From positions 205,421 to 269,420 of the forward strand of contig OY781463.1 in the NCBI GenBank assembly GCA_963676725.1: 64,000 nucleotides of DNA, written 5' to 3'. The position numbers were made by a program, and so were the translations under genes. Shown piece after piece: positions 33,120 through 52,266 of this stretch (position 1 is its first letter; each line of letters opens with the position of its first letter). The notes below the pieces were generated by a model. The model did no database searches and had not been told where the DNA came from. It was given only the letters and a program-made list of their open reading frames with translations. The stretch comes from Bacteroidales bacterium. GTDB taxonomy: Bacteria; Bacteroidota; Bacteroidia; Bacteroidales; WRLA01.

Positions 33120-35938
<2,819 letters not shown>

Positions 35939-35985
35939 GTGAGAAACAAAATTTTTCGATAATCTGCAGTGTGTCAACGATATTT

Positions 35986-36093
<108 letters not shown>

Positions 36094-36103
36094 CTTTAAT
36101 TTT

Positions 36104-36137
36104 AAACCCGACCTGTCATGGTCGGGTTTTATTTTGA
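36104..36137 (+). terminator. rRNA operon terminator
   Basis: Stem AACCCGACC / GGTCGGGTT with a 6-nt loop, followed by TTTATTTTG. Confidence 0.8.
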
Positions 36138-36194: not shown

Positions 36195-36222
36195 GCCCTG
36201 CGCCCTGCAGGGCATTTTTTTT
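36195..36222 (+). terminator. Second hairpin plus T8 run; overlaps the stop codon of the convergent REC-PP2C gene
   Basis: Stem GCCCTGC(36195-36201)/GCAGGGC(36207-36213), then T-run 36215-36222. Confidence 0.55.
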
Positions 36223-37381
36223 ACCTAAATTTTACACTTAACATCGTAATGTCATCACTCTGAATAGCTCCTTTTGCATGGGCTGTTAATGCTGCGCTTA
36301 CTTCTGAGATAAGCTCCGCCGGACTCATGTTTGTGCATCTCTCGAGTAATTCTTCCAATGCGTTGTCGCTAAATAGATTGTTCTGTACGTCCATTGATTC
36401 GGTTACGCCATCAGTATATAAGAATAAACTGTCGCCTGCTTTTAAATGTGTCTCAAGGGTATTATAAGATAATCCTTCTAAAACACCAAGAACCGTATTC
36501 CCTGTCAGCTTTAATCGCTCAATATTTCCATCTGAATGCAATATGTATGGAGGATTGTGACCTGCATTGCAATAGCTCAGCTTTCCGGTATTGATTTCCA
36601 GAATGCAGTAAAATGTGGTTACAAACATATCATTGATATTTTCCTTGCACAATAATTCGTTTGAATAATTCATGCATTCATCTGGTGATAGCCCTTTTAA
36701 TGCTGCAGCCCTTATAATTGTACGACTTACCGCCATATAAATTGCTGCAGGGATTCCTTTATCTGATACATCTGCAATTACTAAACCCAGATGCGTGTCG
36801 TCAATCATGAAGAAATCATAAAAATCTCCCCCTACTGACTTCGCTGCCTCCATTTGCGCATAAATATCAAATTCAGTATGCTCCGGAAAAGCTGGAAAAT
36901 TTTTGGGTAATATAGATTGCTGTATCTCTTTAGCGATGCTTAAATCATGCTGTATTGCCTCAAGTTGATAATGTTCTTTTTCTGCTTTCTGTAGCAAACT
37001 AACATGCTCAATCGTTTTATTGATGGTAATTTCAAGATCAGTAAAGTCAATTGGTTTTGTGGTAAAATCAAATGCTCCACGGTTCATGGCCGTTCGTATA
37101 TTGTCCATGTCTCCGTACGCTGAAACCATTACTGTCTTGAGTGTTGGATTTTTAAGCTCATTGATTTTTGTTAACAATGTGAGTCCATCCATTTCCGGCA
37201 TATTAATATCTGATAGGATAATGCAGGTGTCCGGATGTTCCAATATTGCGGCTAATGCCTCTAGGCCGTTTCCTGCAAAGTGGAATTCAAATTGTCCTTT
37301 TCTGATTTGCCTTCTGAATTTTTGTTTGATGAGCATTTCCATATCGGGCTCATCATCAACGCATAATATTTTAAAAGCCAT
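36221..37381 (-). CDS. Response regulator with PP2C/SpoIIE-type serine phosphatase output (RsbU-like architecture)
   Basis: The N-terminal receiver has DDEPD, the phospho-acceptor context ILSDINMPEMDG, and TKP. The C-terminal PPM motifs are GGDFYDF, DVSDKGIPAA, YTDGVTE and DDITML. Confidence 0.9.
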   Translation of the reverse strand: MAFKILCVDDEPDMEMLIKQKFRRQIRKGQFEFHFAGNGLEALAAILEHPDTCIILSDINMPEMDGLTLLTKINELKNPTLKTVMVSAYGDMDNIRTAMNRGAFDFTTKPIDFTDLEITINKTIEHVSLLQKAEKEHYQLEAIQHDLSIAKEIQQSILPKNFPAFPEHTEFDIYAQMEAAKSVGGDFYDFFMIDDTHLGLVIADVSDKGIPAAIYMAVSRTIIRAAALKGLSPDECMNYSNELLCKENINDMFVTTFYCILEINTGKLSYCNAGHNPPYILHSDGNIERLKLTGNTVLGVLEGLSYNTLETHLKAGDSLFLYTDGVTESMDVQNNLFSDNALEELLERCTNMSPAELISEVSAALTAHAKGAIQSDDITMLSVKFR

Positions 37382-37395
37382 AATATAATGTTTTC

Positions 37396-37995
37396 TTAGT
37401 TTTCATTGTTTAAACGCATTTTCCAGCCAAACTGTGCGCAAAATTTTCCAAGATTTAGATCATCCATTGCAGATGAATAGATCATGAAAATGGTGTTGGG
37501 AATATAAAATTCTATAAGCGGACCGGCAGCAATAAAACTTCCATTATGCACTTCTGTTGCGCCAATACGAAATGCCCCCAATTTATAGGTAAAGATGCAC
37601 TGAGAGCGGTCTTTATCTCCACCCCATTCATATACACCGAAGAAAAAAAGTTTTTTGTGAAAGAGATACACTACCGGAGAATATCTTTCAGGACTACCAT
37701 TGCCGGTTTGGAGGCCAACTTTAAATCCTGCAATAAGCCATGGTGCTATATTAACATCAACACCAAAAACTGATTCGCCCCAATGTTCCCTTATCAAACT
37801 GTAGCTGGCAAATGAGAATGTTTTGTTTAAAGCACTCTGAGTTGCTAATGTGGCCGTAATAAATGAGGGGTCTGTGCCTAAATCTTCATGATAAAAATAG
37901 TAATTGTGCAAACTCAGCTTTGTTTGAGCCATAGTTGTGTAATTCGCTGAGATCAGCAATATCACTACAATGAATATGACGTTTGTTTTAAACAT
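37396..37995 (-). CDS. Hypothetical secreted beta-rich protein (199 aa)
   Basis: Signal peptide (VIFIVVILLISANYTTMAQ) and an aromatic/Gly-rich body. Its start overlaps the upstream kinase stop by 8 nt. Confidence 0.55.
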   Translation of the reverse strand: MFKTNVIFIVVILLISANYTTMAQTKLSLHNYYFYHEDLGTDPSFITATLATQSALNKTFSFASYSLIREHWGESVFGVDVNIAPWLIAGFKVGLQTGNGSPERYSPVVYLFHKKLFFFGVYEWGGDKDRSQCIFTYKLGAFRIGATEVHNGSFIAAGPLIEFYIPNTIFMIYSSAMDDLNLGKFCAQFGWKMRLNNEN

Positions 37996-38842
37996 GTTTT
38001 TTTATTGGCAAACAAATAGTAAACTGTGTGAATTCCCCTTGCTGACTATCTATGGTGATGCTTCCATTATGCTTTTTCTCAATAATTTCCCGCACCATAG
38101 CAAGACCTAATCCTGTTCCTTTTCCTACTTCTTTTGTGGAAAAGAAGGGGAGAAATATTTTTTCTCGGATATGTTCCGGTATGCCTATGCCGTTGTCGTG
38201 AAATGTGATTTGTACGCATTCGCCTTTATTCTCTGTGGCTATTTTAATCTCAGGCGTATATTGTTCGATCTTGAGGGTAGATTTCACAAAAACAGCATAG
38301 CAAGCATTATTCACTATATTTAGTATGGCACGGGAAATATCCTGAGGGATAATTTCTATAGGAGGAAAATCTATAGCAAATTGATATTCGATGCTGGTAT
38401 TGAATGTGCTGTCCGATGCACGCATCCCGTGATATGCGAGTTTTGTGTATTCTTCCACCATTTTGTTGATGTCGGTGCGCTGAAAAGCACCTTCCTTGCC
38501 CCTTGTTTGTAGGAGCATGCCTTTAATGATATTCTGTGCACGTTTTCCGTGTTCTGAAATTTTGCTTGAATTCGCTTCCAGCATTTCAGCAATTTCTGTA
38601 AGCTCGTCAAGAGATTCTGAGAGATGTTCCTGATCCTGAATTTCTTCGATAATCGCCTTTATGTCTTCCGTCAATTGAATATTTAACTGGGCAAAATTAT
38701 TCACAAAATTGAGGGGATTTTGAATTTCATGCAAAATGCCGGCAGTTAATCGCCCGACAGCGGCTAATTTTTCCTGCTGAATAATTTGATCCTCTAGCTT
38801 TGAAATCCTGTTTTCTAGTTCTTCAATTTTATTTTGATTCAT
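37988..38842 (-). CDS. Soluble, sensor-less histidine kinase (coiled coil + DHp + HATPase)
   Basis: H-box [14 protein letters not shown] (His38 codon 38729-38731), N-box [11 protein letters not shown], G1 HDNGIGI, G2 GTGLGL. No hydrophobic segment. Confidence 0.85.
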   Translation of the reverse strand: [284 protein letters not shown]

Positions 38843-38858
38843 AATATCTGGATTTTCA

Positions 38859-41800
38859 TCATGATATAGGAATAGTCACTGTAAATAATGTCCAATCATT
38901 AATGGATGATTCGACATCGATCCTGCCAGAATGGTTCTGGATAATTTCTTTGGCGATATATAATCCTGTGCCTGTTCCTTCAGCTGTTGGTTTTGTGGTA
39001 AAAAACGGATCGAATATTTTCTTTTTTTCCAACTCACTGATGCCCATGCCGTAATCTTTAATGCTAAAAACGGCAAACCTGCCATCAATACAGCTATTTA
39101 TTTCTATTTCCAATCGTTCGATATTTGATTTTTTTGTTTTCTGAATACTGGTATAGAAGGCATTACGCAATAGATGATAGATGACCTGAGCGATTCCATT
39201 GGCAATTATTGGGGCATTTAATTCTTTATTCAATTGAAGGATTGGAATAATTTTTTCACCATTTTCATAGGTGGAAAATTCTTTTTGGACTATTGCTGCG
39301 CCCTGTGTCAAAAGGCTATTGATATCTGTTCTTTGTTTTTCGCCACTTCTGTCGCGCAAAAGATTTTCCATACCTTTTACTATGCGTGCAGTATTTGTTC
39401 CGTGTTCATGGATTTTTTGCACATTCTGCTCCAGCATTTCTGTAATTTCTGAAAGTTCTTCTGTGTCCTCATCAGATAAATTGCTTTCGCTGCCTTTTAT
39501 TATTTCATTTTGCTCTTGGATTAATTCAGCGGATAGTTGCGCAAAATTATTGATATAATTTAAGGGGTTTATGATCCTGTCGACGATGCCCTGAGTGAGT
39601 TTACCGACGGAGGCCAGTTTTTCTTTGCGGATTAATTCCTGCTGTGTGCTTTCCAGGCTGTGGAGGGTTTGCTCAATTTCATGCAATAAATTTGTTTTAA
39701 TAAACGCAGAAACCAGATGCTCTTTGATATTCCTGAATTGTTCGCAGATTTCCTCATCAAAGGCTTGATGCTCATACATATTTTCCATAATCAGATAGCC
39801 CATAACCCTGTTTTTATACCGGATGAGCATGATGATCATCGCAGAAGATTTCTCAAAAACATTTTTTAGTTTTCCCTCAAATTCAATCTGTGGGCTATTT
39901 TTCAGGAAGATGTCTTCAAAAACTTCAGTAGTTTGACTTAAGTATTGTTTTTCAATATCTTCTGTGCTAAGTTTGATGTGTTTTGCCTGTTCAATTTTTC
40001 TTCCTGCTGAGGATGTAAAGCTATAAGTGCCGAGCGTCTCATCAAACATAAGAGAGGTCGCAGTATCAACATTTGGAAGTAGTTGCAGTTTTTTAAGAAG
40101 GGCATCCAAAAGTAAATCCAATTGTATTTCAGCATTAATTGATTTCACCAAATTGTTAATGCCTTCCAATTCTTCGTTTTTCTTGCTTAGTTCTCCCGAT
40201 TGTTGCTTTAAAGCCTCTTTTTGTTTATTGATTTCATGGGTGCGTTCCTCAATAATTCCTTCCAAGCGTTGTTTGTCGCGCATCAATTGAGCCGACCGAT
40301 ACCTTATATACAGAACGATAATAAGGATGAGTGTAAAAATATAGGCCAGATAGGCCATCACTGTATTATACCAGGCCGGATGGATTAAGAAAGAAAAAGT
40401 AATCGGATCGCTCTCTGTTCCGTCGGGGAGTTTTGTTCGTACTTGAAACTCGTACTTTCCTTTTAATAAGTTAGTGTATTCTTTTGAGTGCTCTTGAGAC
40501 CATTCTGACCAGCTGTCATTTAAGCCCTTCAAGCGATAACTGAACAGTACTTCTGCGCCAACATCAAAATTGGTAGATGCAAATTGAAAAAGAAAGTGGC
40601 TCAACTTATGCGGTATGTCCATTGTCGTCTGTTGTTCTAGATCGAAAATAGAATCTCCGGCTTTTATCTTAGTAAAGAAAATGCTGGTTTCGGGCCTGCG
40701 AACATCATTATTTTTTGTTTGAATCAGGAAAATTTTATTTTGACCACCCAGCCAAATATGATTGGAATCAGGGGCATAGGCACAACGGATATCTTCGCCT
40801 TTAAGACGGTATAGTTCTTGCTTTGAAACGGTATAACATTTCGATGTTTTTTTAAAGAGCCTGCTCTCCTTTGATTCTGCTCCGTATGTGTATAATATGC
40901 TATTCGACAAAGAAATAACAGGGTTTAACCATTGATTATTAATCTCTTCTTTGCAGAATAGTTCTGTGTCTGAAAAAGAATTTGATGTTTTATCGTAAAT
41001 GAGAATTCCCCCGCCATAATTAATATGCAAAATATTGTCCGCAATAAAAATCCCACTCGTATTATTGGATGGTAGCCCTTTGTCACCAAAGGGATATAGA
41101 ATTGGTTTTTCTGTTTGCTGTATATCCAAACGCCAGACCCCATCTCCGGGTGCATGAAACCAAATGTTTTTCCCATCGCTCAAAACTGTCCTGATTTCAG
41201 TATTTTTTATAATGTCTTTTTTAATCTGTGTTTGATTGTTATAGGAAAAAGCTCCTCGTGTAGTCCCTGCAAAAATCATATTGCCCTCAAGCACCATGGA
41301 CAATACAAACTCATCAGTGATTTTTGCTATTCCTGAATTATTGATTGCATACAATCCATCACTACAGCCGGCCCAAAGTATATTATTTTCTTCATCTTTT
41401 TGGAGTGTCCAACAGGCTGTATTAATCTCTTTTAGGGCAGTAAATTTTTCTTTTTCCATCCGAAAAAGCCCTTGCATTCCGGCAACATACAGTTGATGAT
41501 TATAATTTAAGAGCGCATTAATGTCTCCTTCAATTCCATTGGATCTGTTATACAGGCTAATATCTGATGGGATTGCGCATAATGCAATGCCTCCATTCAT
41601 GCTTAACCAGAGGTTTTGGTCCTTCTTACTGTAATTCATTGCAGTCACATCAAAAGTTCCATAAACGGGATGGTCTGCAGTATGCATCTGTATAAGGCCA
41701 TCATTATTGAAAAGAAATGCACCTTTATGCTTCGTTCCCAGCATCATCAACTCATTATTAATCCGCTGAATGCAACTGCATTGTCCTTGTTTTGCCATCA

Positions 41801-42545
41801 GGCTTGCATCATTTTTAAGGAATGATGCTTTGCCGTTTTTTATTTGTATGATCCCTTGCAGGCGGCTGAATAAAAGGCTGTCTCCTTTAAAAATATCCAT
41901 GCCTATGATTTCAGTGCTTTGAGGCAGCCCTTCTATGAATGAGGTCTTTTCTGTTTTGTGGCCATCAAAAGAAAAGAGCCCGCTGTTTTCGCTTTGAAGG
42001 AAGATTTTGTCCTGAAAAGAAAATGCTCCGATGCAATAAAAATCAAGGGGTATTTTGCGTATTTCTTCTTTGGTTTTTAAGTAAATTTTATTTTCCGATA
42101 CAAAAATAATCGTCCCGGAAATTTCTCCAATATGAAATACAGTTCCCTCAAAAACAGTATTTTCTGCAAGTGGTTTAAATGAGCTTTGTCCGTTTTGGGC
42201 TTTTTGGATAAAACCACATTCATTGCGGCCGCCGGCATAAACCTGCCCATTGGAGGCTGTGTATAATGATGTGATCATATTATAAGAAGGGGTGGGGATT
42301 AGGGACCAAAGGGCGCCATTATAGGTGATGATTCCCGAGAAATTCCCCACATACAAAATGCCGAGGCTATCGCGGCATAATGAGAAATTTTGTTCCTTGC
42401 CCTGATATTCTTCTGCCGAAAAGAAATGAATCAAAGGACTGCCAGAGAAAGGAATGTTCTCTTCCTGAGCGAAAATGTTTTTGCTGCTTCCAAGAATCAG
42501 AAGCAGTATCGTAAGGATTATGTGACCTGAGATATGATTTTTCAT
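38859..42545 (-). CDS. Large membrane sensor kinase-like protein (periplasmic two-component-regulator propeller repeats + Y_Y_Y-type domain, TM, coiled coil, GAF-like, DHp with Asp instead of His, HATPase)
   Basis: Signal peptide, then about 700 aa of propeller-like repeats, then FSYRLKGLNDSWSEWS (Y_Y_Y region). TM helix MAYLAYIFTLILIIVLYI. Degenerate H-box LTQGIVDRIINPLN (Asp codon 39579-39581). N-box HLLRNAFYT, G1 KDYGMGI, G2 GTGTGL. Confidence 0.85.
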   Translation of the reverse strand: MKNHISGHIILTILLLILGSSKNIFAQEENIPFSGSPLIHFFSAEEYQGKEQNFSLCRDSLGILYVGNFSGIITYNGALWSLIPTPSYNMITSLYTASNGQVYAGGRNECGFIQKAQNGQSSFKPLAENTVFEGTVFHIGEISGTIIFVSENKIYLKTKEEIRKIPLDFYCIGAFSFQDKIFLQSENSGLFSFDGHKTEKTSFIEGLPQSTEIIGMDIFKGDSLLFSRLQGIIQIKNGKASFLKNDASLMAKQGQCSCIQRINNELMMLGTKHKGAFLFNNDGLIQMHTADHPVYGTFDVTAMNYSKKDQNLWLSMNGGIALCAIPSDISLYNRSNGIEGDINALLNYNHQLYVAGMQGLFRMEKEKFTALKEINTACWTLQKDEENNILWAGCSDGLYAINNSGIAKITDEFVLSMVLEGNMIFAGTTRGAFSYNNQTQIKKDIIKNTEIRTVLSDGKNIWFHAPGDGVWRLDIQQTEKPILYPFGDKGLPSNNTSGIFIADNILHINYGGGILIYDKTSNSFSDTELFCKEEINNQWLNPVISLSNSILYTYGAESKESRLFKKTSKCYTVSKQELYRLKGEDIRCAYAPDSNHIWLGGQNKIFLIQTKNNDVRRPETSIFFTKIKAGDSIFDLEQQTTMDIPHKLSHFLFQFASTNFDVGAEVLFSYRLKGLNDSWSEWSQEHSKEYTNLLKGKYEFQVRTKLPDGTESDPITFSFLIHPAWYNTVMAYLAYIFTLILIIVLYIRYRSAQLMRDKQRLEGIIEERTHEINKQKEALKQQSGELSKKNEELEGINNLVKSINAEIQLDLLLDALLKKLQLLPNVDTATSLMFDETLGTYSFTSSAGRKIEQAKHIKLSTEDIEKQYLSQTTEVFEDIFLKNSPQIEFEGKLKNVFEKSSAMIIMLIRYKNRVMGYLIMENMYEHQAFDEEICEQFRNIKEHLVSAFIKTNLLHEIEQTLHSLESTQQELIRKEKLASVGKLTQGIVDRIINPLNYINNFAQLSAELIQEQNEIIKGSESNLSDEDTEELSEITEMLEQNVQKIHEHGTNTARIVKGMENLLRDRSGEKQRTDINSLLTQGAAIVQKEFSTYENGEKIIPILQLNKELNAPIIANGIAQVIYHLLRNAFYTSIQKTKKSNIERLEIEINSCIDGRFAVFSIKDYGMGISELEKKKIFDPFFTTKPTAEGTGTGLYIAKEIIQNHSGRIDVESSINDWTLFTVTIPIS

Positions 42546-45418
42546 ACGCTTTGGCTGTTAAAATGAGCCTGATGATTTTTTTCTCCAAAAACTTGCTCCA
42601 TAAATTCCATATGACTTTCTCTAGATGCTGAATAAAGCAAGAGAAGATTGTTTAGAGTGAATTTATTTAGCTTATAATGTTGGTTTGTTTTATTGTTTAA
42701 ACGAATCTTTTTCTCCGGATTGTTTTCGGGCAATAAGATCAAATCACCGTTTTTGTAGGTACTCTTGGGCTCTGTAATTGTAAGTGTATCATCAACACAT
42801 AAAATGCACTCACTGTAAGGATAGAATACATCATCAACGGATGTGGTTTTGGTATCTTCCAGCAAGATATCTAAAAGTATTGGGTGAATTTGACTCAGGA
42901 TTTTATTGGCATTTGCTGCTTGAATTAAATGGCAGCAATTTTTTTCTGTTTCAGGATTATAGAAAAAAGGCATGAGTTCCGGTGTATATTCAAGGCAAAA
43001 TTTCAAATGTTCAGGATTTCGCTCTTTCAGAATATGAACTGCTGTTTTCTTTAAAAGAGTATTTTTACTGCATATATGTGCTGCAATCAGCTCTGTAAAG
43101 CTTTCCGAAAAATCTTTGAACATAGCAGCTTGTTGCATTGCCAAGGCGATTGTTGTGCTTGAAAACATCCAGATATTGCCCCCGATCAATTCTTTGATGT
43201 GATCGTTCAGTCCTTTCTTTTTTTGTGGGAAAAACCTACTTAGTTTGTCCAGGCTTTCTTCGGTGCTCTCTGAAGTGAAGAGCGGTATCAATACTTCTTT
43301 TAAATTTCCCTGAATGATAAATTCCAATGCTTCTGCAGCAAAACCACTGCTTGCACCCTTTGTGTTTTTTCTGATGCGCTCGAGGCTTTCCGCATCAAAA
43401 AGCAGTCCCAAAGTATTGAAAATACCAGTTTCATAGCGATTTGCATCATTAGTTAGAGCTTTTATTAGGTCGGGCTGGGCGCTGTCTTTTATGTCTTCCA
43501 ATATTCTGTAAATACTACAAATGTCTTCGATTTTGGCATAGATAATGTCTTCCGCTTTTCTTCTAAACTCTCCATTAAAGCGTTCTGTTTTGTTTTTGGT
43601 AATCATCTTAATCGCATAATCCCGTTCGATGGGCGATGGATTGTCTATTTGTTTTTGCAGAAAATCCTGGCCGGAATTTATATGAGATAAAATATTTAAA
43701 ATGGTCATCCTGAGAAGGGTGTCATCTGTGTTTTTTATAAATGCCTGCTCAAGTTCAGTCGGGGCATGAAGGTGGGATAATGAAAATGCTGCAAGATTCC
43801 TATATTCCGGATCAGAAAGATAGGTGAGGAGTTTGCTGATGAGTTCTTTTCGTTTCAGCAATGCTGCAGCCTGAATGCATTCCCGTTTTATGGCTGCATT
43901 TTCTGAGTTCATTAGTGAAATTATTTCATGCACAGCAGATAAGCGTCCGTTTAGGCCTTCCTGTGTGGCATTGCTCACTCTTTGGTCTTTAAAATAACCG
44001 GGATCGGGCATGAGGCTTTGATCGCCAATTTCGAGAGAAGCTTTTTGAAGGATGCCGTTATTTATTTGCGAAGGGCGTTTCTGTTCTGTTTCTTGTTCCT
44101 TTTTAGTGCTGTCTTTTGGATGTATGCCAATCAGAATTTCAATTTTATGCCTGTATTCTTTCATCGTATTGATGACGACCCAAAGCCAGATAATGCCAAT
44201 CGGGATAAAAATATAGTTATAGCTTACAATGCTTTTTACCGGTATATAAGTAAATGCGACTAATGCAAGCCCGGCGATAATACTGCCAATTGCTTTGGGA
44301 ATGCCTTCGATGAAGTTCTGGAAATTTAAGCGCCCTTCAATTGGTATTGCCTGATATAAAACCTGAAAAGATGGATCGTGTATGCCGGAACGTGTCGATC
44401 GCTCAAATAATTTCCCCATGGCAACCAAGACAAAAAATAGGGCAAGGCCTGGAGCAATGCTTCCCAAAATGGCAGCAGGGGCAAGAGTTCCCAATAAAGC
44501 AATGGGCATGATAATTAATCCTATTTTTAGTCCGTAGCGATTGAGTAACCTGCCCGATAACAAAGACTTAAAGAGTAATTCAATCAGAGCCGCAACACCA
44601 AGAAATACACCAAGAAAGCTGGCCAAAACTTCTGTGTCGGGAAAAGTTTTGCGCGTTTCGGCCAAAAAGATGAAATCGACATAATAAATGGCAAACATTG
44701 GAAAAATGGCCAATAGGAAAACAAAAAGCCCAAAACGGTCGCGAATCATTTTTTGCTTTGTTGGAGCATCCTGTTTTTTGTTTTGCTGCACAGGGCTGCC
44801 TTCATTTAGTTCTTTTTGGAACTTTTTTGTGATGATTAACATAAGCGCCAGGCAGATAAGCAGCTCGGCTGCCGAAAGGAACAATAGCCCGGAGGCATCA
44901 ATAAATTGAAGAAGTAGGGGGACAAGAAAGAAACTCAGGATATTTGAAACAACCTCGCCAGAGCTGATAACACTAAACAGCCTTTTGCCTTGTTGGATTT
45001 TAAAAATGCGTCCGGCTATGCCCCAAAAGCCTATGCCATAAACGAATATAAAAACCCGTACCCAAACAAACATGATAAAACTCAGCCAGACAATTTCGCT
45101 TTGTTTGAAAATAATGCTTAACATCAATACGCTGACAAAGAGAAAGATAATCCCGGCTACATTCAGGCTGCGCAGGTTCAGGTGTTTTTGGACAGCCGAA
45201 TAGAGTTTCGACATCCCAAAACCAATCAGACCACTTGCCAAATATGCCCATGGAAGGATTTCGTTTCCATAGAATTTCAGGAAAAGAGCTGTGCCTCCTG
45301 TATAAAAAAATGCAATAGCAGAACCCATAAAAAAGCTATAGGAGGCCATAAGAACCACCACTGTTTGCTCTGCAGCTTTAATATTAAAGAGGTCCGCTAT
45401 TTTTCTTGCGAGATTCAT
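42542..45418 (-). CDS. Fusion protein: N-terminal 11-12-helix MFS-fold domain (ATP/ADP-translocase/Npt-like by eye) + cytoplasmic HEAT/armadillo-like repeats + C-terminal small beta-rich domain
   Basis: About 420 aa of hydrophobic helices (first helix context AEQTVVVLMASYSFFMGSAIAFFYTGGTALFLKFYG). These are followed by about 400 aa of amphipathic helical repeats and a terminal about-110-aa region (ILCVDDTLTITEPKSTYKNGDLILLPE) that could be cNMP-binding/cupin-like. The family call is a recollection, not a search result. Confidence 0.6.
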   Translation of the reverse strand: MNLARKIADLFNIKAAEQTVVVLMASYSFFMGSAIAFFYTGGTALFLKFYGNEILPWAYLASGLIGFGMSKLYSAVQKHLNLRSLNVAGIIFLFVSVLMLSIIFKQSEIVWLSFIMFVWVRVFIFVYGIGFWGIAGRIFKIQQGKRLFSVISSGEVVSNILSFFLVPLLLQFIDASGLLFLSAAELLICLALMLIITKKFQKELNEGSPVQQNKKQDAPTKQKMIRDRFGLFVFLLAIFPMFAIYYVDFIFLAETRKTFPDTEVLASFLGVFLGVAALIELLFKSLLSGRLLNRYGLKIGLIIMPIALLGTLAPAAILGSIAPGLALFFVLVAMGKLFERSTRSGIHDPSFQVLYQAIPIEGRLNFQNFIEGIPKAIGSIIAGLALVAFTYIPVKSIVSYNYIFIPIGIIWLWVVINTMKEYRHKIEILIGIHPKDSTKKEQETEQKRPSQINNGILQKASLEIGDQSLMPDPGYFKDQRVSNATQEGLNGRLSAVHEIISLMNSENAAIKRECIQAAALLKRKELISKLLTYLSDPEYRNLAAFSLSHLHAPTELEQAFIKNTDDTLLRMTILNILSHINSGQDFLQKQIDNPSPIERDYAIKMITKNKTERFNGEFRRKAEDIIYAKIEDICSIYRILEDIKDSAQPDLIKALTNDANRYETGIFNTLGLLFDAESLERIRKNTKGASSGFAAEALEFIIQGNLKEVLIPLFTSESTEESLDKLSRFFPQKKKGLNDHIKELIGGNIWMFSSTTIALAMQQAAMFKDFSESFTELIAAHICSKNTLLKKTAVHILKERNPEHLKFCLEYTPELMPFFYNPETEKNCCHLIQAANANKILSQIHPILLDILLEDTKTTSVDDVFYPYSECILCVDDTLTITEPKSTYKNGDLILLPENNPEKKIRLNNKTNQHYKLNKFTLNNLLLLYSASRESHMEFMEQVFGEKNHQAHFNSQSV

Positions 45419-45421
45419 TTC

Positions 45422-46252
45422 TTAATAGTTGATTGGTTCGAGCTGTGATTTTGGCAAAGCAAAATAGAGGTTTTTATCGGTGAGCCAGCCTTCCCGAATC
45501 ATTGCAACAATAAGGTATCTACCTTCTTTATAAAGGCTTTCAATGTTCTGAAAATCATCAAAATCGATTAATTGATAATCTGAGCCTGCTTGATTATGCT
45601 CGATATATCTCAATAGTTTTTCTTTATCTATGCGATTGTATACAAAATCCACAGGTGTTAGCCTAAGGCTGAGCATAAAAGCTTTTTGAATTCCCAATTG
45701 CAGCTCCGGATGGTAATTATCAAAAACGCAGCCCATTTTATTCAGATGCAAATATGCCGACACACTATTATCTGTCTCCAATAATCCCCTGTCTGTCAGC
45801 ATTCCTTTTTCCATGGCAATAAGGTTCAGGTAATTTACCATATGGAGTCCGGTGTTTTTTCCCTTCAGGCGTTCATCCATGGCAAGTCTAAGGTTAAAGG
45901 TGCATTTATCAGGGGTTTGATAATAAGCACTATATACGCAGGCCAGGAGTTCTCCTTCCTTATTTTCCAGCATTAATGCGTAGCCGAAGAGAATAAAGCG
46001 ATAGATATCATATGCACTCAGGTCGTTTGCAATGCGTTCACCAAAAATAATCCAACGATCATGGGTAAAGCGATAAAGGCGCTCAATATCGTTTAGTTCT
46101 CCTTTGACTAATTTGAGGCCTTGATCGTTAAAGAATCTTTCAATTTCTTGCTTATTGGTTTTAATAAATAGTTCAGTTTCGTGCAGATGTTGCCATTGTG
46201 AGCGGTCGATGCAAATTTCTGCTGGTTTTCGATAAAATGTATAGTCTTCCAT
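45422..46252 (-). CDS. Hypothetical protein with GNAT-acetyltransferase-like core
   Basis: RLAMDERLKGKNTGLHMVNYLNLIAMEKG resembles GNAT motif A (R/Q-x-x-G-x-G/A). AYLHLNKMGCVF resembles motif B. Confidence 0.45.
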   Translation of the reverse strand: MEDYTFYRKPAEICIDRSQWQHLHETELFIKTNKQEIERFFNDQGLKLVKGELNDIERLYRFTHDRWIIFGERIANDLSAYDIYRFILFGYALMLENKEGELLACVYSAYYQTPDKCTFNLRLAMDERLKGKNTGLHMVNYLNLIAMEKGMLTDRGLLETDNSVSAYLHLNKMGCVFDNYHPELQLGIQKAFMLSLRLTPVDFVYNRIDKEKLLRYIEHNQAGSDYQLIDFDDFQNIESLYKEGRYLIVAMIREGWLTDKNLYFALPKSQLEPINY

Positions 46253-46267
46253 GATCAGTGTTTGAAA

Positions 46268-48895
46268 TTACCAGATATTGTTGTTTAAACGGTAGCTAAG
46301 TCTTATGAGAAAATTCCTTCCGGCTTGCGGCGTTCGCCAGGCGTATGCAAAGCCATCGGCTGAGCGTATGCCCGGATCAGAATATTGATGGTCGAGCAGA
46401 TTATAGCAAGAAAATTGCAAATCCATTCCTTTAATGATGTCGAAATAACTAATGCTTGTGTTGATTACTGTTGTTGCGGGGAATGCTCCCGGATTTGCAG
46501 GGACAGATGTGCCCGTGCCTGTTTCCCTTTCTGCAGCCCATTTTCCTCTGATGTTGATATTCAGATGATTAAAAAACTCAATATTCCCGATAATATTCAG
46601 TTGATGTGATGCAATATCGCCTATCCTTTGATACTCATCAGTTGGTAGTCCGGACTCGTCTTTGATATTTTCTTCAGGATGGGTATAGGTATATCCTGCC
46701 TGAATGCTGTAATTATCCCTTTTATAATTGAAAAGAGCTTGCGCGCCCATAATATGGAGTTTTCCAATGGCTTGATTTTGTCCTGTATATGAATTTTGCC
46801 AAGGAACAATCACGGTGCCAACGGCTCCATCATAGGTGCTATTGTAAAAAGAGGCTTCAATAAATGAATTTTTGTTAAGATTATAGCCAACAGATACCTC
46901 CAGGTTCGTTACTCTTTCGGGGTTTAGATTAGGGTTGGCCAACAAACGCTGTGGGTTGGTGGCGTATTTCGTCCAATTCGAGGCATCCTGAAAGGCGCTT
47001 GCATAGATGGCTTTAAAAATAAAATCCCCGGGTGTTGCAACAAGCGCAATCCTTGGGTTAAATACAGAGCCATATCCTCCGCTTTTACGGATTTTATTAT
47101 AATCGTACCTTCCGCCTAAGGTGAATATAAACAGCTCTTTCCAATGATAAGAAGCTTGCAAATAGGCTCCAATATTCATAATATTGAAATTATTCCCTCC
47201 GGGCATCAGGTCGCCTGAGCTTGTGCCATCGTCTATTACATTAAGGCTGTCTGGCGGATTGATAAGCATTCTGTAGTCGCCTTGTAAATTGCTGCCTCGA
47301 AATTCAAGGCCACCGATCAGGTCGAAATTGGTTGTTGGCCTATAACTGATTTTTAGTTCATCGCGCACCTGCGAAGATGTTTGATACAGGAAGACCGTTG
47401 TAAACTGAACAGGCGTTTGAAGCACAAATGCATCGGCATTCAGCCCAGAATTCGCATAATTGGCCATGCTCACAGAGCGGCTTAAATCATTTGCATCGCT
47501 TTTTCGGTAATAGGCTAAATTGCTTAGGTGCACACTTTCACTCAGTTGTTTCTCAAACAGACTATAAACATACAATTGTTTCGGATTCCATATCTGGCCA
47601 TTGTCTGAGCCAAGTTTTGACCAATCTGTGAAATAATTCAATCCTCCTGTTTTGGTTTCCCAGAGTTCATAACCAATAGTGAAATTGCCAAAAAGCAGTT
47701 TGCCCGAAAAGAAATAATTGTCGGCAATATTACTGTAAGAGGGAAGTGCATTATCAACTTTCGTATTTAATCCATTGATGTCGAGTTGACGCGCAGCCGT
47801 GTTTCCTGCTTGATTCAGATTGGCGGCAATTGGGTTTCCTGCTGCATCATAACTTATATTATAATAGTCGGCAACCTGAGCAAAATCGGGTGAATTGATA
47901 AATTCTTCCACATTTTGATCAACAGATAAGAGTCGTCCATAATTAATCGTATCATATGCTTCCGTGGAAAAATCGAATTCAGGATAGCCTGAGAGGTCAT
48001 AATCCTCTGTGAAATAGGTTTTAAATGTGCTGATAAAGCTAAACTTTTCAAATTTTCCACCAATGCTGATGTCTGCATATTTTGTGTTCCACGAGCCATA
48101 GCCAACAGAGGCGTCAATGCCTATTTTATGATCTCCGGCCAAATCGGCTGGTTGTTTAGTAATCACATTCACAACTCCTGTAAAGGCATTTGCGCCATAC
48201 ATTGTTGATGCCGGTCCATAGATTACCTCAATACGCTTGATATTGCTCACGGGGTATTGCCGGTTAATGTATGCGATATTTGACCAAAGGTCGTTTTCCT
48301 CCACACCATCAATCAATACGAGCATACGGTCTGTATTGTTTGATCTATACCCACGCTGGTAGATGTTAGAAAAAGTGCCTGCACGTGTGCTTGAGATATC
48401 AAATCCGGGTAGATCGTAAAAAATTTCAGCAAGATTGTTGTATGCTCGTTGCCTTATTTCCAGATCACTCAGAACAATAACGGTGGCAGGGGCTTCGTGG
48501 ATGTTTTCCGCTTTTTTAGAAACAGAGGTTACTTGACGCGAAGCGGCTTCTGCCTTTTTGCTGTTTAGTAATCGTTTGAATTGTGGTGGATCAAAAATAT
48601 TTGCTTCATATGCCGGCGACATCATCAATAACTTCCCCATAAAATGATTTGCTGCATCCAATGAATCCAGGGCCAGGTTTGATAGGATCATTAGGCGAAA
48701 GGCTTCTTCTTCTTGTCTGATGCCAGAATGATTTCCCAGACAATCTTTAAGGATTGCTATGGATTCATTAAAATGACCTGATTCATATGATTTTTTCGCC
48801 TCACTCAGATTTTGCGTGCCACAGTTTTGAGCTGTAAGCATCAAAGGGGCCAAAGCCATGATCAGAAAAAAGATTAGGGTAAATATTCGGTTCAT
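46268..48895 (-). CDS. TonB-dependent outer-membrane receptor with N-terminal TPR-like extension
   Basis: Signal peptide, then about 110 aa of helical extension. Plug motifs: APATVIVLSDLEIRQR, PGFDISS, IDGVEEND, IKRIEVIYGPASTMYGANAFTGVVNVITK. Long beta-barrel ending RLSYRLNNNIW. Its ATG overlaps the upstream stop (ATGA at 48892-48895). Confidence 0.85.
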   Translation of the reverse strand: MNRIFTLIFFLIMALAPLMLTAQNCGTQNLSEAKKSYESGHFNESIAILKDCLGNHSGIRQEEEAFRLMILSNLALDSLDAANHFMGKLLMMSPAYEANIFDPPQFKRLLNSKKAEAASRQVTSVSKKAENIHEAPATVIVLSDLEIRQRAYNNLAEIFYDLPGFDISSTRAGTFSNIYQRGYRSNNTDRMLVLIDGVEENDLWSNIAYINRQYPVSNIKRIEVIYGPASTMYGANAFTGVVNVITKQPADLAGDHKIGIDASVGYGSWNTKYADISIGGKFEKFSFISTFKTYFTEDYDLSGYPEFDFSTEAYDTINYGRLLSVDQNVEEFINSPDFAQVADYYNISYDAAGNPIAANLNQAGNTAARQLDINGLNTKVDNALPSYSNIADNYFFSGKLLFGNFTIGYELWETKTGGLNYFTDWSKLGSDNGQIWNPKQLYVYSLFEKQLSESVHLSNLAYYRKSDANDLSRSVSMANYANSGLNADAFVLQTPVQFTTVFLYQTSSQVRDELKISYRPTTNFDLIGGLEFRGSNLQGDYRMLINPPDSLNVIDDGTSSGDLMPGGNNFNIMNIGAYLQASYHWKELFIFTLGGRYDYNKIRKSGGYGSVFNPRIALVATPGDFIFKAIYASAFQDASNWTKYATNPQRLLANPNLNPERVTNLEVSVGYNLNKNSFIEASFYNSTYDGAVGTVIVPWQNSYTGQNQAIGKLHIMGAQALFNYKRDNYSIQAGYTYTHPEENIKDESGLPTDEYQRIGDIASHQLNIIGNIEFFNHLNINIRGKWAAERETGTGTSVPANPGAFPATTVINTSISYFDIIKGMDLQFSCYNLLDHQYSDPGIRSADGFAYAWRTPQAGRNFLIRLSYRLNNNIW

Positions 48896-51800
48896 TTTTT
48901 GTTAGTTTCGGTGCGATATGGGATGTCTGTGCCAATATATTCCTGCCATTCAAATATTGTGAGTCCGCGTCCTGCTGTTTGTTGTGCTTTTTTTGCCAGC
49001 CGTTCCGGGTCAATTATGGTTTTTATTATTTGATTGTCGGAACCACATGAAATAATCTCTGAATCATCTTCGGCAAACAAAAGGTCGTAAATCCAACCAT
49101 CATGATTGTGAATGGACAATGGGGGCGCATCGGTTTTCGAACAGTCCCAGATTCTTATGTTTTGGTCGTAGCCTGCCGAAGCTAAAAGTCCGCCTGAATG
49201 ATTAAAAGCTAAGGCTTGAACTCCGGATGTATGTCCAATCAATGAAGATTTTTTCCCGTTCTGATCAATGAGAAATACCTGTCCTTTATCGTTGGCACAA
49301 GCCATATTTTTGTTTTTGGCATCATAGGCAATGGCAGTAAGCGGATGGGATACTTCATTAATTATTGTGTTTTCTTCGCCGCTTTCAAGATGAATAAACA
49401 GAAGTTTGCCGTTTTTTAATCCTGCATAAAGGCCGTTTTTTGTTCCTAAGCAACTTGTAATTGGCGCTTCCGTTTTTTGAAGGGCGATAAGGGGATTGCT
49501 TTCTGCATTTGTCTGATCGTATTTATAGATTTGCCCTTGCCCGTCGATACAAATTAATTGGTCGTTGCTGCTGGTAATATGGTATATCATTGCCGGAAGG
49601 GGAATATTTTTCGGCGGGGAGGCATTCGTTAAATCAAAAATCAATAAGTCTTTATTGTAGGTGACTGCGGCCAGATTCCCATTTCCAAAAACAGGGCCAC
49701 TGCTCAGAAATTCTGTGGAAACCGGGCTGTTGATAAGCAGAGGGAGATCTTTATTTCCTGATGCTTGAATCTTTATCAGCTTCCCGTCCTGTGTGGCAGC
49801 GATAATATATTTATTATCAAAGAACTGTAGCTTTTTAATGGCGTCATCGTGCTGGTACATCTGGTCTCCATTCGCAGTAGTTTGGCTTAATGCCTGAAAA
49901 ACATCAGGATCCTGTGGATTGCCTTGGTTCTCTTTGTTCAGACGCCACGCTTCTAGGGCTAAAAGCTGGGGCAATTCCCCTTGAATGCTCTTCGATAAAT
50001 CAACGGCTTGTATTGCGAGAGCCTTGGCAATCGCAAGTTTTCTTAATCTTTGTGCCCTGTTTTCTGAAATTTCTGCTTTAGTTTTTTGTGCTTCAGCAAT
50101 TTGTTTTTGCTCCAATGCTTCTGTTTTTCTTTGTTCGGCCTCATCTTTGGCTTGAACAGCAACTACTGAAGCGCTATCGGCTTTTTCGCGTTCGTATTCT
50201 GCAAGGCTGCGCTCATAAATGGCAATATTTTGCTGGGCAATGGCATATTGTTTCTGTTGCTCTGTTATGAGTTTTTGCTGTTCGGCAATTTCTTGTTGCT
50301 GTTCGGCAATTTTTTGTTGAATAATGGCTTTTTGCCGCTCGGTCTGGGCTGTGTTCCTTTCGCTTACGGCAATTTTTTCTTTTTCAACGGCCTTTCTTTC
50401 AGATGCTTCCGCTTGAAACATTAAGGTAAGGGCATAAACAAAAAGAAGTATCGATAGTATTGATGCAGCACTGAGGATGAGCACAAATTGCCGGGCCCTT
50501 TTCAGTTCTTTTTTTTGTTTTTCCTGTGTGAGCAGTTCTTTGGTTTCTTTTTCATTTTGCGATGTATGCAAGAAACTCATAGCCCTGTCAAAACTATGGT
50601 CATAACGTGAAGCCCATCGTAAATTTGGATGGTTATTATTTTTCCAGTTAATGGCCAATTGAAGTTCAGGATCTTGCCATAAAGCAGCTCTTCCTTCCTG
50701 ATAAAGTGCAGCAGAAGTCGCCAGTCTTTTATAAAGTCGAGCAGAGTGTGCTTCCTCGGCGATCCATTTTTTTAAGCGCACCCAAACACGCATCAGGCTT
50801 TCGTGGCTGATGTCGATCATGGTTTCGCTCATGATTGTATTTGGGAAAGGAGGTGTTAAAAAGGCACGCCCGGGTTTTCTGAAGAGTTCAATCACCGATT
50901 TTACTTCTTGTTCGCTTTCGTTGCAGATGCCTGCGAGTTCTTTCAGGCTGCAAGGCCTGCGCACAATACGGTTTTCTTCACTGATTTCGGTGAGGGCGCG
51001 GAAGGTTTTCTCGCAGATATTTTTTTGGCGATCGGTTTTTAATTCTGCATAAATTTCTTCTGCATGGATGGATAAGGCTTTTTCTATCTTACCGGCGGCG
51101 ATATAGTGTTTAATGCCAAGTGTTTCTGTTCCCCTTTTTGTGGATTGCCAATGATCCCATGTGCGCATTAATGCATGCTGCATAATGGGAAGTTGGTCTT
51201 GATTGTTCCCAATATCTTGGAGTATTTTTTCTGTAAAACCATCTTCCAACTGATGCCCCATTTTCTCCAAAGGGCCTGAAATTGCTTCCAAACAGGCGGT
51301 TCTATCCATGCGCGGAACCAGATAATTGCCTTTATTAATGAGTTCGGTGAGTTTTGGGAAGCGTGTGCAGTCGTATAAAAAATCGGAACGCATGCTAATA
51401 ATGATCCGTAGCTTGCTTCCTTGGATCAGGTCGGAAAGCAAATCTGTAAATATTTGCGCTTCCTTAGATTGTGCTTCGTCGGTAGTAAAACGGAACAATT
51501 CTTCAAATTGATCGAGGACCAATAAGCAGTTCTCCCCCTTTTCAGGGAATTGGGCGATGGTGTTTTTTAATTCTTCGGTTCTGTTTTTAGATGATTGATA
51601 ATCCTTTGGTTCTTCCTTTTTCTTTATAGAAAACAATTGCTCAAGGGCTTCTATTAAATTCTGTACAGGCTGTTTCCCCGGTCGAATAATGGAATATCGA
51701 AATGCATCCGATTGAGCTTTCATGGCGGGAATGATGCCGGCAAGGATCAGTGATGATTTTCCACATCCTGAAGAACCTGTAATGGAGACAAAACGACTGC

Positions 51801-51999
51801 TTTCCATCTTCTTTAGTAGCTCTTCTATTTCTTTTTTGCGGCCAAAAAATAGTTGAGCCTCTTCAGGTCGATAGCTTCGGATTCCCGGAAATGGATTTAT
51901 TAGGTTCACTAATGCTTTTTTTATTTGGTTGTCGATGCAAAAACACTTTCCGCTTCTGTGTATTTTAGTACGCCATTTTGAAGCGTTGTAAATGTACAT
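48892..51999 (-). CDS. Membrane-anchored STAND-type P-loop NTPase with coiled coil and C-terminal WD40 beta-propeller (1035 aa)
   Basis: NPFPGIRSYRPEEAQLFFGRKKEIEEL...ITGSSGCGKSSLILAGIIP (Walker A), LLVLDQFEELF (Walker B). One TM helix at aa 505-528 (nt 50416-50487), preceded by KQKKELKRARQ. About 150 aa of Q/E/A-rich coiled coil follow. WD40-like repeats lie at the C-terminus (HTSGVQALAFNHSGGLLASAGYDQNIRIWD). Confidence 0.8.
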   Translation of the reverse strand: MYIYNASKWRTKIHRSGKCFCIDNQIKKALVNLINPFPGIRSYRPEEAQLFFGRKKEIEELLKKMESSRFVSITGSSGCGKSSLILAGIIPAMKAQSDAFRYSIIRPGKQPVQNLIEALEQLFSIKKKEEPKDYQSSKNRTEELKNTIAQFPEKGENCLLVLDQFEELFRFTTDEAQSKEAQIFTDLLSDLIQGSKLRIIISMRSDFLYDCTRFPKLTELINKGNYLVPRMDRTACLEAISGPLEKMGHQLEDGFTEKILQDIGNNQDQLPIMQHALMRTWDHWQSTKRGTETLGIKHYIAAGKIEKALSIHAEEIYAELKTDRQKNICEKTFRALTEISEENRIVRRPCSLKELAGICNESEQEVKSVIELFRKPGRAFLTPPFPNTIMSETMIDISHESLMRVWVRLKKWIAEEAHSARLYKRLATSAALYQEGRAALWQDPELQLAINWKNNNHPNLRWASRYDHSFDRAMSFLHTSQNEKETKELLTQEKQKKELKRARQFVLILSAASILSILLFVYALTLMFQAEASERKAVEKEKIAVSERNTAQTERQKAIIQQKIAEQQQEIAEQQKLITEQQKQYAIAQQNIAIYERSLAEYEREKADSASVVAVQAKDEAEQRKTEALEQKQIAEAQKTKAEISENRAQRLRKLAIAKALAIQAVDLSKSIQGELPQLLALEAWRLNKENQGNPQDPDVFQALSQTTANGDQMYQHDDAIKKLQFFDNKYIIAATQDGKLIKIQASGNKDLPLLINSPVSTEFLSSGPVFGNGNLAAVTYNKDLLIFDLTNASPPKNIPLPAMIYHITSSNDQLICIDGQGQIYKYDQTNAESNPLIALQKTEAPITSCLGTKNGLYAGLKNGKLLFIHLESGEENTIINEVSHPLTAIAYDAKNKNMACANDKGQVFLIDQNGKKSSLIGHTSGVQALAFNHSGGLLASAGYDQNIRIWDCSKTDAPPLSIHNHDGWIYDLLFAEDDSEIISCGSDNQIIKTIIDPERLAKKAQQTAGRGLTIFEWQEYIGTDIPYRTETNKK

Positions 52000-52266
52000 A
52001 TTTTTATTTGTGTTTGGGCTCTGTACCTTGATTTTTTCAAAAATTCCATTGCAATCTTACTATTCCTTTTGCATTGTGCTGATTAATTTATGATATTGCA
52101 GCCAATTTGGTAGAAGAATGGGGGTAAATCGTTTTATCAAAAACTGATGGTCGCTTATAGGCGGATAATATCGTCTTCGTATTTCAAAATCGACGGGGAA
52201 TTGCAACTAATAAGTTGTTGAACCTATTGCTATAAACTTTAAATATTACCAATTAAATTACAGAAA

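Follow-up and report, generated by a model that had tools for sequence, protein, structure and literature searches.

A conserved eight-gene cluster of Bacteroidota and its possible role in signalling across the cell envelope

What kind of system would join, in a single run of genes, a STAND nucleoside triphosphatase (NTPase) with WD40 repeats, a TonB-dependent receptor, a transporter/HEAT fusion and a histidine kinase followed by a phosphatase? The question arises from a 64-kb stretch of DNA from a Bacteroidales bacterium (GenBank assembly GCA_963676725.1, contig OY781463.1), hereafter the window, in which a listing of open reading frames (ORFs) places eight genes on the minus strand between positions 36221 and 51999. 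We number them from the 5' end to the 3' end: g1 (48892-51999, 1035 amino acids, aa), g2 (46268-48895, 875 aa), g3 (45422-46252, 276 aa), g4 (42542-45418, 958 aa), g5 (38859-42545, 1228 aa), g6 (37988-38842, 284 aa), g7 (37396-37995, 199 aa) and g8 (36221-37381, 386 aa); all cluster features described below lie on this strand. Here, we show that the eight genes are a real operon-like cluster and a conserved functional unit. We further argue that the operon encodes one envelope-spanning signal-transduction pathway conserved in Bacteroidota, a reading that we find somewhat probable and by no means secure. With less than even confidence, we also propose that three of its components, namely the g1-type STAND protein, an outer-membrane barrel tagged with a particular N-terminal domain and the g4-type transporter-like protein with HEAT repeats and, in relatives, a cyclic-nucleotide (cNMP)-binding domain, may constitute a previously unrecognised kind of trans-envelope receptor.

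Conservation and limits of the cluster

A profile of g4 homologues scanned over one genome per GTDB species yielded more than 500 relatives at the least, and the locus counts given below rest on the best 80 of these, fetched via g4 with 10-kb flanks and compared by tblastn, ORF mapping and family clustering. Each locus whose contig reaches far enough has its genes in the order g1, g2, small enzyme (g3 in the window), g4, g5, and every one of the at least 60 inspected loci with enough flank holds the full core. At the family level, g4 was counted in 76 of the 80 loci, g2 in 74, g1 in 67 (always upstream of g2) and g5 in 66. Short junctions are conserved as well, with 50 nt or less separating g1 from g2 in 63/68 loci, g4 from g5 in 62/67 and g2 from the enzyme gene in 62/66, and with medians of 27, 10, 10.5 and 6 nt for the conserved junctions. 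Overall, the gene order is kept in at least 60 Bacteroidota species belonging to several orders, and the lineages carrying the cluster include Bacteroidales, Prolixibacteraceae, Lentimicrobiaceae, Mucilaginibacter, Saprospiraceae, Flavobacteriales, Ignavibacteriaceae and, among Cytophagales, Runella, Emticicia and Arundinibacter.

The original prediction, made from the letters of the window alone, had read the genes as one coherent module, and had suggested asking whether orthologues of the STAND-WD40, TonB receptor and transporter/HEAT genes co-occur in other Bacteroidota or are scattered. They co-occur, with the same order in the 80 loci and the short junctions kept. Since this order recurs in relatives, the cluster is a functional unit, and scattered orthologues no longer come into question as a ground for dismissing it. 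The 3' genes are less constant: g7 is present in 36 loci, and the 46/80 loci in which g8 is linked to the cluster place it in one of two ways, some at the 3' end like the window, others upstream of g1, where it forms a divergent pair with g6. Linkage of g8 in two different positions argues for selection on the linkage itself. We noticed that three contigs labelled Alphaproteobacteria or Hyphomicrobiales (loci L001, L041 and L069) hold a Bacteroidota-type cluster, the pattern in L001 being nearly identical to that of the Runella locus L006; these labels are probably binning errors of metagenome-assembled genomes.

In the window, the seven junctions from g1 to g8 measure -4, +15, +3, -4, +16, -8 and +14 nt, in exact agreement with the eight ORFs and the lengths first reported. 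The start of g2 differs between gene callers, one placing it 12 codons later (863 aa) and another at the 875-aa start; the shorter form would abolish the ATGA overlap with g1 and cut away most of the signal peptide. Promoter-like sites within the cluster (41 vs 45.8 in shuffled sequence) and terminator-like sites (18 vs 15.1) are not enriched, and a search of the 300 nt preceding each of the eight starts gave no Bacteroidetes-type TAnnTTTG motif. Therefore, nothing favours splitting the cluster into separate units at internal promoters or terminators, such sites standing at the level of shuffled sequence in a scan of low power, because the main operon promoter escaped the same scan too. On the 5' side, a divergent gene starts at 52267, and the intervening 267-nt divergent region (52000-52266, minus strand) is the expected place of the operon promoter and holds no TAnnTTTG motif. 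On the 3' side, where a convergent rRNA operon follows, the terminator scan found a GC-rich hairpin (36195-36213) past the g8 stop codon and before the convergent 5S rRNA gene; this hairpin is likely the transcript end of the operon. The base composition of the cluster is ordinary.

A membrane STAND protein, a receptor extension and a transporter-like protein

Pfam and NCBIfam searches upheld most of the domain calls of the original prediction and gave no contradiction that would overturn it; several calls were refined, as follows. g1 carries an nSTAND1 domain (aa 36-436, 50692-51894; Pfam PF20703, E = 1e-95, 322 bits against a cut-off of 27), with the Walker A motif GSSGCGKS in 60/62 and the Walker B motif 'DQFEE' in 52/62 orthologues. 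Its one strongly hydrophobic segment, assigned from hydropathy as a single transmembrane (TM) helix (aa 506-524, 50428-50484), is kept in 59/62 orthologues and has a Lys/Arg cluster just before it. Between this helix and a C-terminal WD40 propeller (about 49000-49842, Pfam WD40 families) stands a coiled coil of ~150 aa (49960-50412), for which a Pfam scan of the sub-region gave nothing further; Pfam found no effector domain at the N-terminus of g1. The nSTAND1 and WD40 assignments thus hold, but the simple cytoplasmic placement of the protein does not. Given a single TM helix and a cytoplasmic NTPase, the coiled coil and the propeller should lie in the periplasm, and by our own estimate the coiled coil is long enough to reach the outer membrane.

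The receptor g2 begins, in its 875-aa form, with a signal peptide (aa 1-23). There follows an N-terminal extension (NTE; aa 24-120, 48536-48826), delimited by orthologue alignment and containing TPR-like helices, in which Cys25 is invariant and Cys52 is kept in most orthologues; no Pfam family, STN included, matches it. A TonB-box-like QVTSVSKK (48512-48535) comes after the NTE, and the rest consists of Plug and TonB barrel domains (46271-48499; Pfam, E = 1e-19 and 2e-26, respectively). No NCBIfam TonB-receptor subfamily reaches its cut-off for g2, the SusC/RagA signature TIGR04057 scoring 18.4 bits against 46.2, and no SusD family match was obtained for any of the eight proteins (Pfam, NCBIfam), which bears out the earlier statement that this is not a polysaccharide utilisation locus (PUL). 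A TonB-family protein with two TonB_C matches is encoded ~8 kb from the cluster (27269-28264, minus strand) and is a candidate energiser for the receptor; relatives do not keep this gene near the cluster.

The NTE is found on a second kind of barrel. Around distant g4 homologues we observed a sister arrangement that reads g4-like, (HAMP-PP2C), TIR/DUF4062-like, nSTAND1-TM-WD40, OMP_b-brl_2 barrel, ~430-aa protein. A hidden Markov model (HMM) built from the TonB-receptor extensions alone matches the N-termini of these small barrels at 66-72 bits. A further scan, of metagenomes and started from the small-barrel proteins, added 16 loci, in all of which the NTE domain is present (16/16, 48-70 bits) and the STAND gene lies immediately upstream of the barrel gene. 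Overall, 18/18 NTE-bearing OMP_b-brl_2 barrels (48-72 bits) are encoded right after an nSTAND1-TM-WD40 gene, and g4-like genes go with both architectures, the TonB receptor type and the OMP_b-brl_2 type. The occurrence of one domain on two unrelated barrels, always beside a membrane STAND-WD40 protein, is the strongest available evidence that the NTE and the STAND protein work together. That the WD40 propeller of g1 contacts the NTE of g2 is our prediction for how they might do so, offered tentatively and as something that may well turn out otherwise.

Just upstream of the STAND gene, the sister type has a gene for a protein of ~450-480 aa, with DUF4062 above the cut-off and TIR_2 below it (E = 2e-5), which recurs in 10/10 metagenome loci whose contig reaches its position. 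The sister-type loci include L082 (DUF4062/TIR-like gene at 13210-14652), L084 (15157-16512) and L096-L107. In this type, the ~430-aa protein encoded after the small barrel is lipoprotein-like and is itself followed, in L082 and L084, by a giant type IX-secreted protein.

Regarding g4, the original prediction of a transporter/HEAT fusion can be narrowed. The protein joins a 12-TM ATP/ADP-translocase-like (NTT/TLC) domain (44129-45418; AlphaFold2 (AF2) model and Foldseek) to a HEAT-repeat solenoid (about 42869-43984; weak Pfam HEAT_2 match and profile) and a short beta-rich C-terminus (42545-42850), situated where relatives have a cNMP-binding domain. The AF2 model (predicted local distance difference test, pLDDT, of 80, with the C-terminus modelled at low confidence) finds its best Foldseek matches in AtNTT1 and Chlamydia NTT1 (E = 9e-8). 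Searches with the family profile yielded NTT1 (E = 3e-18), HEAT/alphaRep proteins and the cNMP-binding domains of PKG/PKA/HCN (E = 3e-7). Relatives are annotated by JGI as 'ATP/ADP translocase/HEAT repeat protein' and some have PF03219; the window protein, about 90 residues shorter than most relatives, has no TLC match in Pfam. Model and profile together would place g4 in the ATP/ADP-translocase (NTT) lineage as a predicted transporter-like protein. Queuosine was considered as a clue to the ligand and dropped, the genes for QueA and Vut_1 standing beside g4 in two distant loci and being absent from the window and all 80 loci. In those two loci the queuosine-related genes (QueA; Vut_1 precursor transporter) immediately precede the g4-like gene (L082, 8520-9713; L084, 9227-10000), a neighbourhood that is probably a coincidence.

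The slot between g2 and g4 is occupied in 66/66 loci, by three unrelated gene classes: GNAT proteins (the window type), formyltransferase-like proteins (39 loci) and S-adenosylmethionine (SAM) methyltransferases (Mucilaginibacter). We rejected the idea of a fast-evolving orthologue, as hhalign probabilities between the three classes are below 1%, and sequence comparison favours replacement by unrelated enzymes. The window protein g3 (45422-46252) has by itself no Pfam, NCBIfam or PDB sequence match; it groups by BLAST with Runella-type proteins matching Acetyltransf_1/FeeM, and its family profile matches solved GNAT structures (E = 3.6e-8, with the motif A region aligned), so we annotate it as a putative GNAT-fold, acyltransferase-like protein with a C-terminal extension.

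The kinase pair, the phosphatase and the barrel

g5 combines periplasmic Reg_prop propellers and a Y_Y_Y domain (40362-42467, Pfam) with a TM helix (40305-40361), a cytoplasmic linker in which a Pfam scan gave nothing further, a DHp-like helix and an intact ATP-binding domain (38862-39197, Pfam HATPase_c) that retains the N, G1, F and G2 boxes. In the DHp-like helix (39555-39590, motif GIVDRIINPLNY), Asp989 takes the place of the phospho-acceptor His, and g5 should therefore be unable to autophosphorylate. g6 (37988-38842) is a soluble histidine kinase with DHp and CA domains (Pfam HisKA and HATPase_c), is 37% identical to the g5 kinase core and has an intact H-box with phospho-acceptor His38 (38705-38740, motif GILHEIQNPLNF).

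Across relatives, the His-to-Asp motif KGIVDRILNPLNY of g5 is conserved in 22 loci, and a soluble H-box kinase lies directly downstream in 22/22 of them, vs a g6-like neighbour in 1/40 loci with a His-type g5, there on the opposite strand (Fisher p = 7e-16). As judged from these sequences, g5 is a pseudo-kinase sensor that would control its paralogue g6, and their strict pairing makes a clean natural case for pseudo-kinase control of kinases. The unorthodox phosphorelay of the original prediction must accordingly be abandoned, as Pfam and NCBIfam found no Hpt domain and no second, intermediate receiver in the eight proteins. A third form of the cluster (L008, L010, L064) has a shorter g5 of ~1070-1090 aa with no recognisable H-box or kinase end, and an HMGL-like enzyme and a 224-aa barrel-like protein sit between its g2 and g4.

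g8 consists of a REC domain (37025-37369; Pfam Response_reg, E = 1e-21) and a SpoIIE/PP2C phosphatase domain (36227-36802; Pfam SpoIIE, E = 2e-52), with the acceptor Asp and the catalytic, metal-binding motifs DVSDKG, TDGV and SDDIT present. The HisKA (His38) and HATPase_c domains of g6 and the Response_reg domain of g8 with its acceptor Asp thus provide, at the level of sequence, the components of a two-component system. Domain scans agree with the view that there is no DNA-binding output and that the only output is the REC-PP2C protein; neither a FecR-like anti-sigma factor nor an extracytoplasmic function (ECF) sigma factor is among the eight proteins (Pfam, NCBIfam).

A STAS gene (PF01740) is the immediate neighbour of g8 or g1 in at least 35/80 loci, often paired with a gene for an RsbW-like HATPase_c_2 protein (PF13581), both being confirmed by Pfam; in L038, the closest relative among the matches listed, the STAS and RsbW genes are both divergent from g1. 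The usual STAS and anti-sigma targets had been described as absent, which is right for the 64 kb of the window but is not a feature of the system: because these genes adjoin the cluster in so many relatives, their absence here points to a local rearrangement. The output half, running from a His kinase through REC-PP2C to STAS/RsbW, is a known design, and the earlier verdict that the cluster is not a known operon type therefore applies to its input half. No conserved sigma-factor family turned up among the families common to the 80 loci, in a comparison that included no search aimed at sigma factors.

Two variations on the STAS neighbourhood were observed. In 13 loci from Cytophagales, Mucilaginibacter and Prolixibacteraceae (including L003, L006, L021, L023, L029, L036, L071 and L077), the genes upstream of g1 encode STAS, GlgX-like isoamylase, STAS and RsbW. 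The isoamylase (Alpha-amylase plus CBM_48) lies ~10 kb upstream of the g4 position, and a glycogen-debranching enzyme with STAS genes on either side is a hint of a possible connection between the partner switch and carbon storage. In seven loci (L030, L032, L041, L048, L053, L060 and L076; about 700-2000, minus strand), the STAS domain is the N-terminus of a ~400-aa protein encoded downstream of a divergent REC-PP2C gene.

The remaining protein, g7 (37396-37995), has no Pfam, NCBIfam or PDB sequence match. It had been called a small secreted beta-rich protein; the signal peptide stands, but the protein is predicted rather to be a small 12-stranded outer-membrane beta-barrel. Specifically, an AF2 model built with 31 homologues (pLDDT 91.9) shows a signal helix and 12 strands, and Foldseek aligns it with KdgM/NanC porins and intimin/invasin barrels (TM-score up to 0.63).

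As for the surroundings, a complete rRNA operon (31096-36094, plus strand) converges on the 3' end of the cluster, with RNA gene scans locating 16S rRNA at 31096-32615, two tRNAs between 16S and 23S (32692-32765 and 32783-32856), 23S rRNA at 33119-35943 and 5S rRNA at 35985-36094. Two terminator-like hairpins separate the 5S gene from g8, one at 36104-36129 and the other being that at 36195-36213. Relatives often place the STAS and RsbW genes just after g8, where the rRNA operon stands in the window; that it displaced them would be a conjecture. Upstream of g1, two divergent genes encode large beta-propeller/BNR-type proteins (52267-54372 and 56969-59386, plus strand; PQQ_2 and PSII_BNR/Sortilin matches) that are not kept beside the cluster in other loci. 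Farther away lie a GWxTD-domain protein (28459-29727, plus strand, ~8 kb from the cluster), RNase P RNA of bacterial class A (24280-24665, minus strand, 242 bits) and three successive genes (12777-21032, plus strand) whose products end in sorting domains for type IX secretion; one product, of 1687 aa, has a cadherin-like domain. Together with the closest relatives, these sorting domains assign the source of the window to Bacteroidota.

Readings of the cluster and comparison with known systems

Components in all envelope compartments had been proposed from the start, and domain and topology predictions agree: the receptor g2 (with its NTE before the TonB box) and the barrel g7 would sit in the outer membrane; the STAND protein g1, the NTT-like/HEAT protein g4 and the Y_Y_Y sensor g5 in the inner membrane; and the GNAT protein g3, the kinase g6 and the REC-PP2C protein g8 in the cytoplasm. 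In the signal-transduction pathway that we favour, a ligand or event at g2 would be relayed via the NTE to the periplasmic WD40 propeller of g1, as from FecA to FecR, and the Y_Y_Y propellers of g5 would also sense the periplasm. Keeping an ATP-binding domain but having Asp for His, g5 might control g6 by heterodimerising with it or by phosphorylation in trans. Phosphorylated g6 would in turn phosphorylate the g8 receiver and switch the PP2C phosphatase, which would dephosphorylate a phospho-STAS protein paired with an RsbW-like kinase and so flip the partner switch, the STAS/RsbW pair presumably being encoded elsewhere in the same genome. The NTPase of g1 together with the HEAT/cNMP part of g4 would probably be a nucleotide-gated scaffold or a second input, and the enzyme in the g3 slot could act on the compound taken up or on a protein of the pathway, in the way that RsbM modifies RsbK. 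Under the more tentative proposal of a new receptor kind, an NLR-like ATPase would sense across the periplasm what state an outer-membrane protein is in and convert this into a cytoplasmic oligomerisation signal, with interchangeable outputs: the kinase/PP2C switch in the window type or the TIR-like protein in the sister type.

Several observations weigh against this pathway. Searches of the window with HMMs made from relatives' genes and with tblastn gave no STAS or RsbW gene, and ~12 His-type loci have no REC-PP2C gene within 10 kb; the PP2C phosphatase may therefore not be the sole output. For window g4, the Pfam MFS_1 match reaches 32.0 bits, below the cut-off of 33.4, and no recognisable cNMP-binding domain was matched by Pfam, including a scan of the C-terminus. 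Neither the sequence of the 267-nt region upstream of g1 nor the TAnnTTTG scan revealed the operon promoter. The periplasmic placement of the WD40 propeller leans on hydropathy and charge bias, the proposed contact of g1 WD40 with the g2 NTE and the g5-g6 pairing on gene order and topology, and what we say of the ligand, of g4 as transporter or sensor and of the role of g3 amounts to guesses.

Could the signalling genes instead be local regulators of an uptake or utilisation locus for a scarce small molecule of nucleotide, cofactor or amine type? In such a locus, g2 and g7 would carry the compound across the outer membrane, g4 would import it and the slot enzyme would cap an amine by acylation, formylation or methylation. 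The TonB-box-like motif and the intact plug and barrel of g2 suggest real transport, g7 is similar to 12-stranded porins that are substrate-specific, g4 shares the NTT fold and, as a family, matches ATP/ADP translocases in sequence, and the slot is always filled by one of three alternative small-molecule transferases. Furthermore, it is Y_Y_Y/Reg_prop sensors that detect the ligand in the polysaccharide loci of Bacteroides. However, five of the eight genes encode signalling proteins, the 80 loci show no catabolic or salvage enzyme as a conserved neighbour of the cluster, and there is no DNA-binding regulator through which local transcription could be controlled. Additionally, the triad of g4, STAND protein and NTE-bearing barrel is kept in the sister system, where the barrel is a small, non-transporter OMP_b-brl_2 protein, and window g4 falls under the MFS_1 cut-off with no TLC match. 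We therefore regard an uptake locus as unlikely.

More improbable still is an NLR-like surveillance or conflict system, in which the WD40 propeller of g1 would monitor the barrels as phage or toxin receptors and an attack would bring about a protective state via the PP2C switch. The nSTAND1 domain was defined in counter-invader systems (PMC8195603), and the DUF4062/TIR-like gene directly upstream of the sister-type STAND gene is typical of a conflict effector. Against this, a PADLOC defence-family scan gave no meaningful match for any of the eight proteins (best E = 9e-4), no effector domain was found in g1 or the window, the outputs in the window are solely regulatory, and the base composition of the cluster is ordinary. 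Unlike defence islands, the cluster also keeps a stable synteny that tracks lineages across orders. That unrelated units (STAND protein with receptor, transporter, two-component system) merely came to lie together by chance is barely credible: although many relatives have g6-g8 as a separate divergent pair upstream of g1, so that some genomes have at least two transcription units, and g4 homologues more distant than those of the sister type occur alone, the order and short junctions persist in at least 60 species of several orders, g8 remains linked even when moved to the other side of the cluster, and the His-to-Asp change of g5 strictly tracks the presence of g6.

Signal transduction in Bacteroidota is known mostly via polysaccharide loci, hybrid two-component systems and pairs of ECF sigma and anti-sigma factors. 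To our knowledge, next to no work in this phylum has dealt with partner switching or STAND ATPases, and the open-access papers and preprints searched describe neither the cluster nor the receptor extension nor a transmembrane nSTAND1 protein. The cluster is widespread and would connect an outer-membrane receptor with a PP2C partner switch by way of proteins whose roles are so far predicted. If the STAND-WD40 protein does read the receptor NTE, it would represent a second, independent solution to outer-membrane-to-cytoplasm signalling beside FecA/FecR, and the first transmembrane NLR-like receptor with a defined partner known to us.

Among known systems, FecA-FecR-FecI shares with the cluster a TonB-dependent receptor that has an extra periplasmic domain before the TonB box (g2) and an adjacent gene for an inner-membrane protein (g1) that crosses the membrane once, so built that its periplasmic portion could take up the signal and its cytoplasmic portion hand it on. 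In contrast, the g2 extension is not STN and has no Pfam match, the partner is a STAND NTPase with WD40 repeats and not a FecR-type anti-sigma factor, and a kinase/PP2C pathway, with no ECF sigma factor, forms the output.

The double propeller and Y_Y_Y sensor of g5, and its linkage to a TonB-dependent receptor, recall the hybrid two-component systems of Bacteroides (BT4663 type), which have Reg_prop/Y_Y_Y periplasmic sensors; the cluster differs in having no fused receiver, no AraC domain, Asp for His, no SusD and no glycoside hydrolases. It also departs from PULs, as Pfam found no SusC/SusD pair and no linked hydrolases in the operon and a GlgX-like isoamylase lies upstream in 13 relatives only, and from phosphorelays, having no Hpt domain and no intermediate receiver. 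Pseudo-histidine kinases are known from Caulobacter (DivL) and from Pseudomonas, where RetS acts on GacS. Like these, g5 has a kinase fold with no functional phospho-acceptor and would exert control via protein-protein contact, but its change is His to Asp (with Glu to Arg), its ATP-binding domain is fully conserved and its partner g6 is a recent paralogue encoded immediately downstream.

The 12-TM fold and the profile match of g4 liken it to the NTT/TLC transporters AtNTT1 and Chlamydia NTT1 (PDB 9j3m, 9j3n). Nevertheless, identity is ~16-18%, g4 is fused to ~500 residues of HEAT repeats, its relatives have a cNMP-binding domain, and it is found in free-living bacteria, with transport being predicted from a model. 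Conflict systems built on nSTAND1 (PMC8195603) likewise have the order nSTAND1 then WD40, the sister type adding a TIR/DUF4062-like protein; g1 differs by a TM helix between NTPase and repeats, by having no N-terminal effector and by stable, lineage-following synteny with signalling and envelope genes.

Finally, the output half has close counterparts. In the RsbK-RsbY-RsbV-RsbW-SigB system of B. cereus, a kinase acts on a REC-PP2C phosphatase and this on a STAS antagonist with its RsbW-type kinase (PMC4574943, PMC9912610), and the methyltransferase RsbM methylates and tunes RsbK (PMC4574943); in the HptB-HsbR-HsbA system of Pseudomonas, a REC-PP2C protein fed by a kinase likewise acts on a STAS protein (PMC6482189). 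The order from g6 to the REC-PP2C protein g8 follows the same plan, with the modifying enzyme RsbM as a parallel to the g3 slot. On the other hand, the STAS/RsbW genes are missing from the window and linked solely in relatives, a linked sigma factor is lacking, two proteins, the pseudo-kinase sensor g5 and the soluble kinase g6, stand in place of one kinase, and the input of receptor, STAND protein and NTT/HEAT protein has no counterpart in the RsbK or HsbR systems. Overall, the g1-g8 cluster resembles a pathway of cell-surface signalling to which a partner switch under two-component control has been attached.

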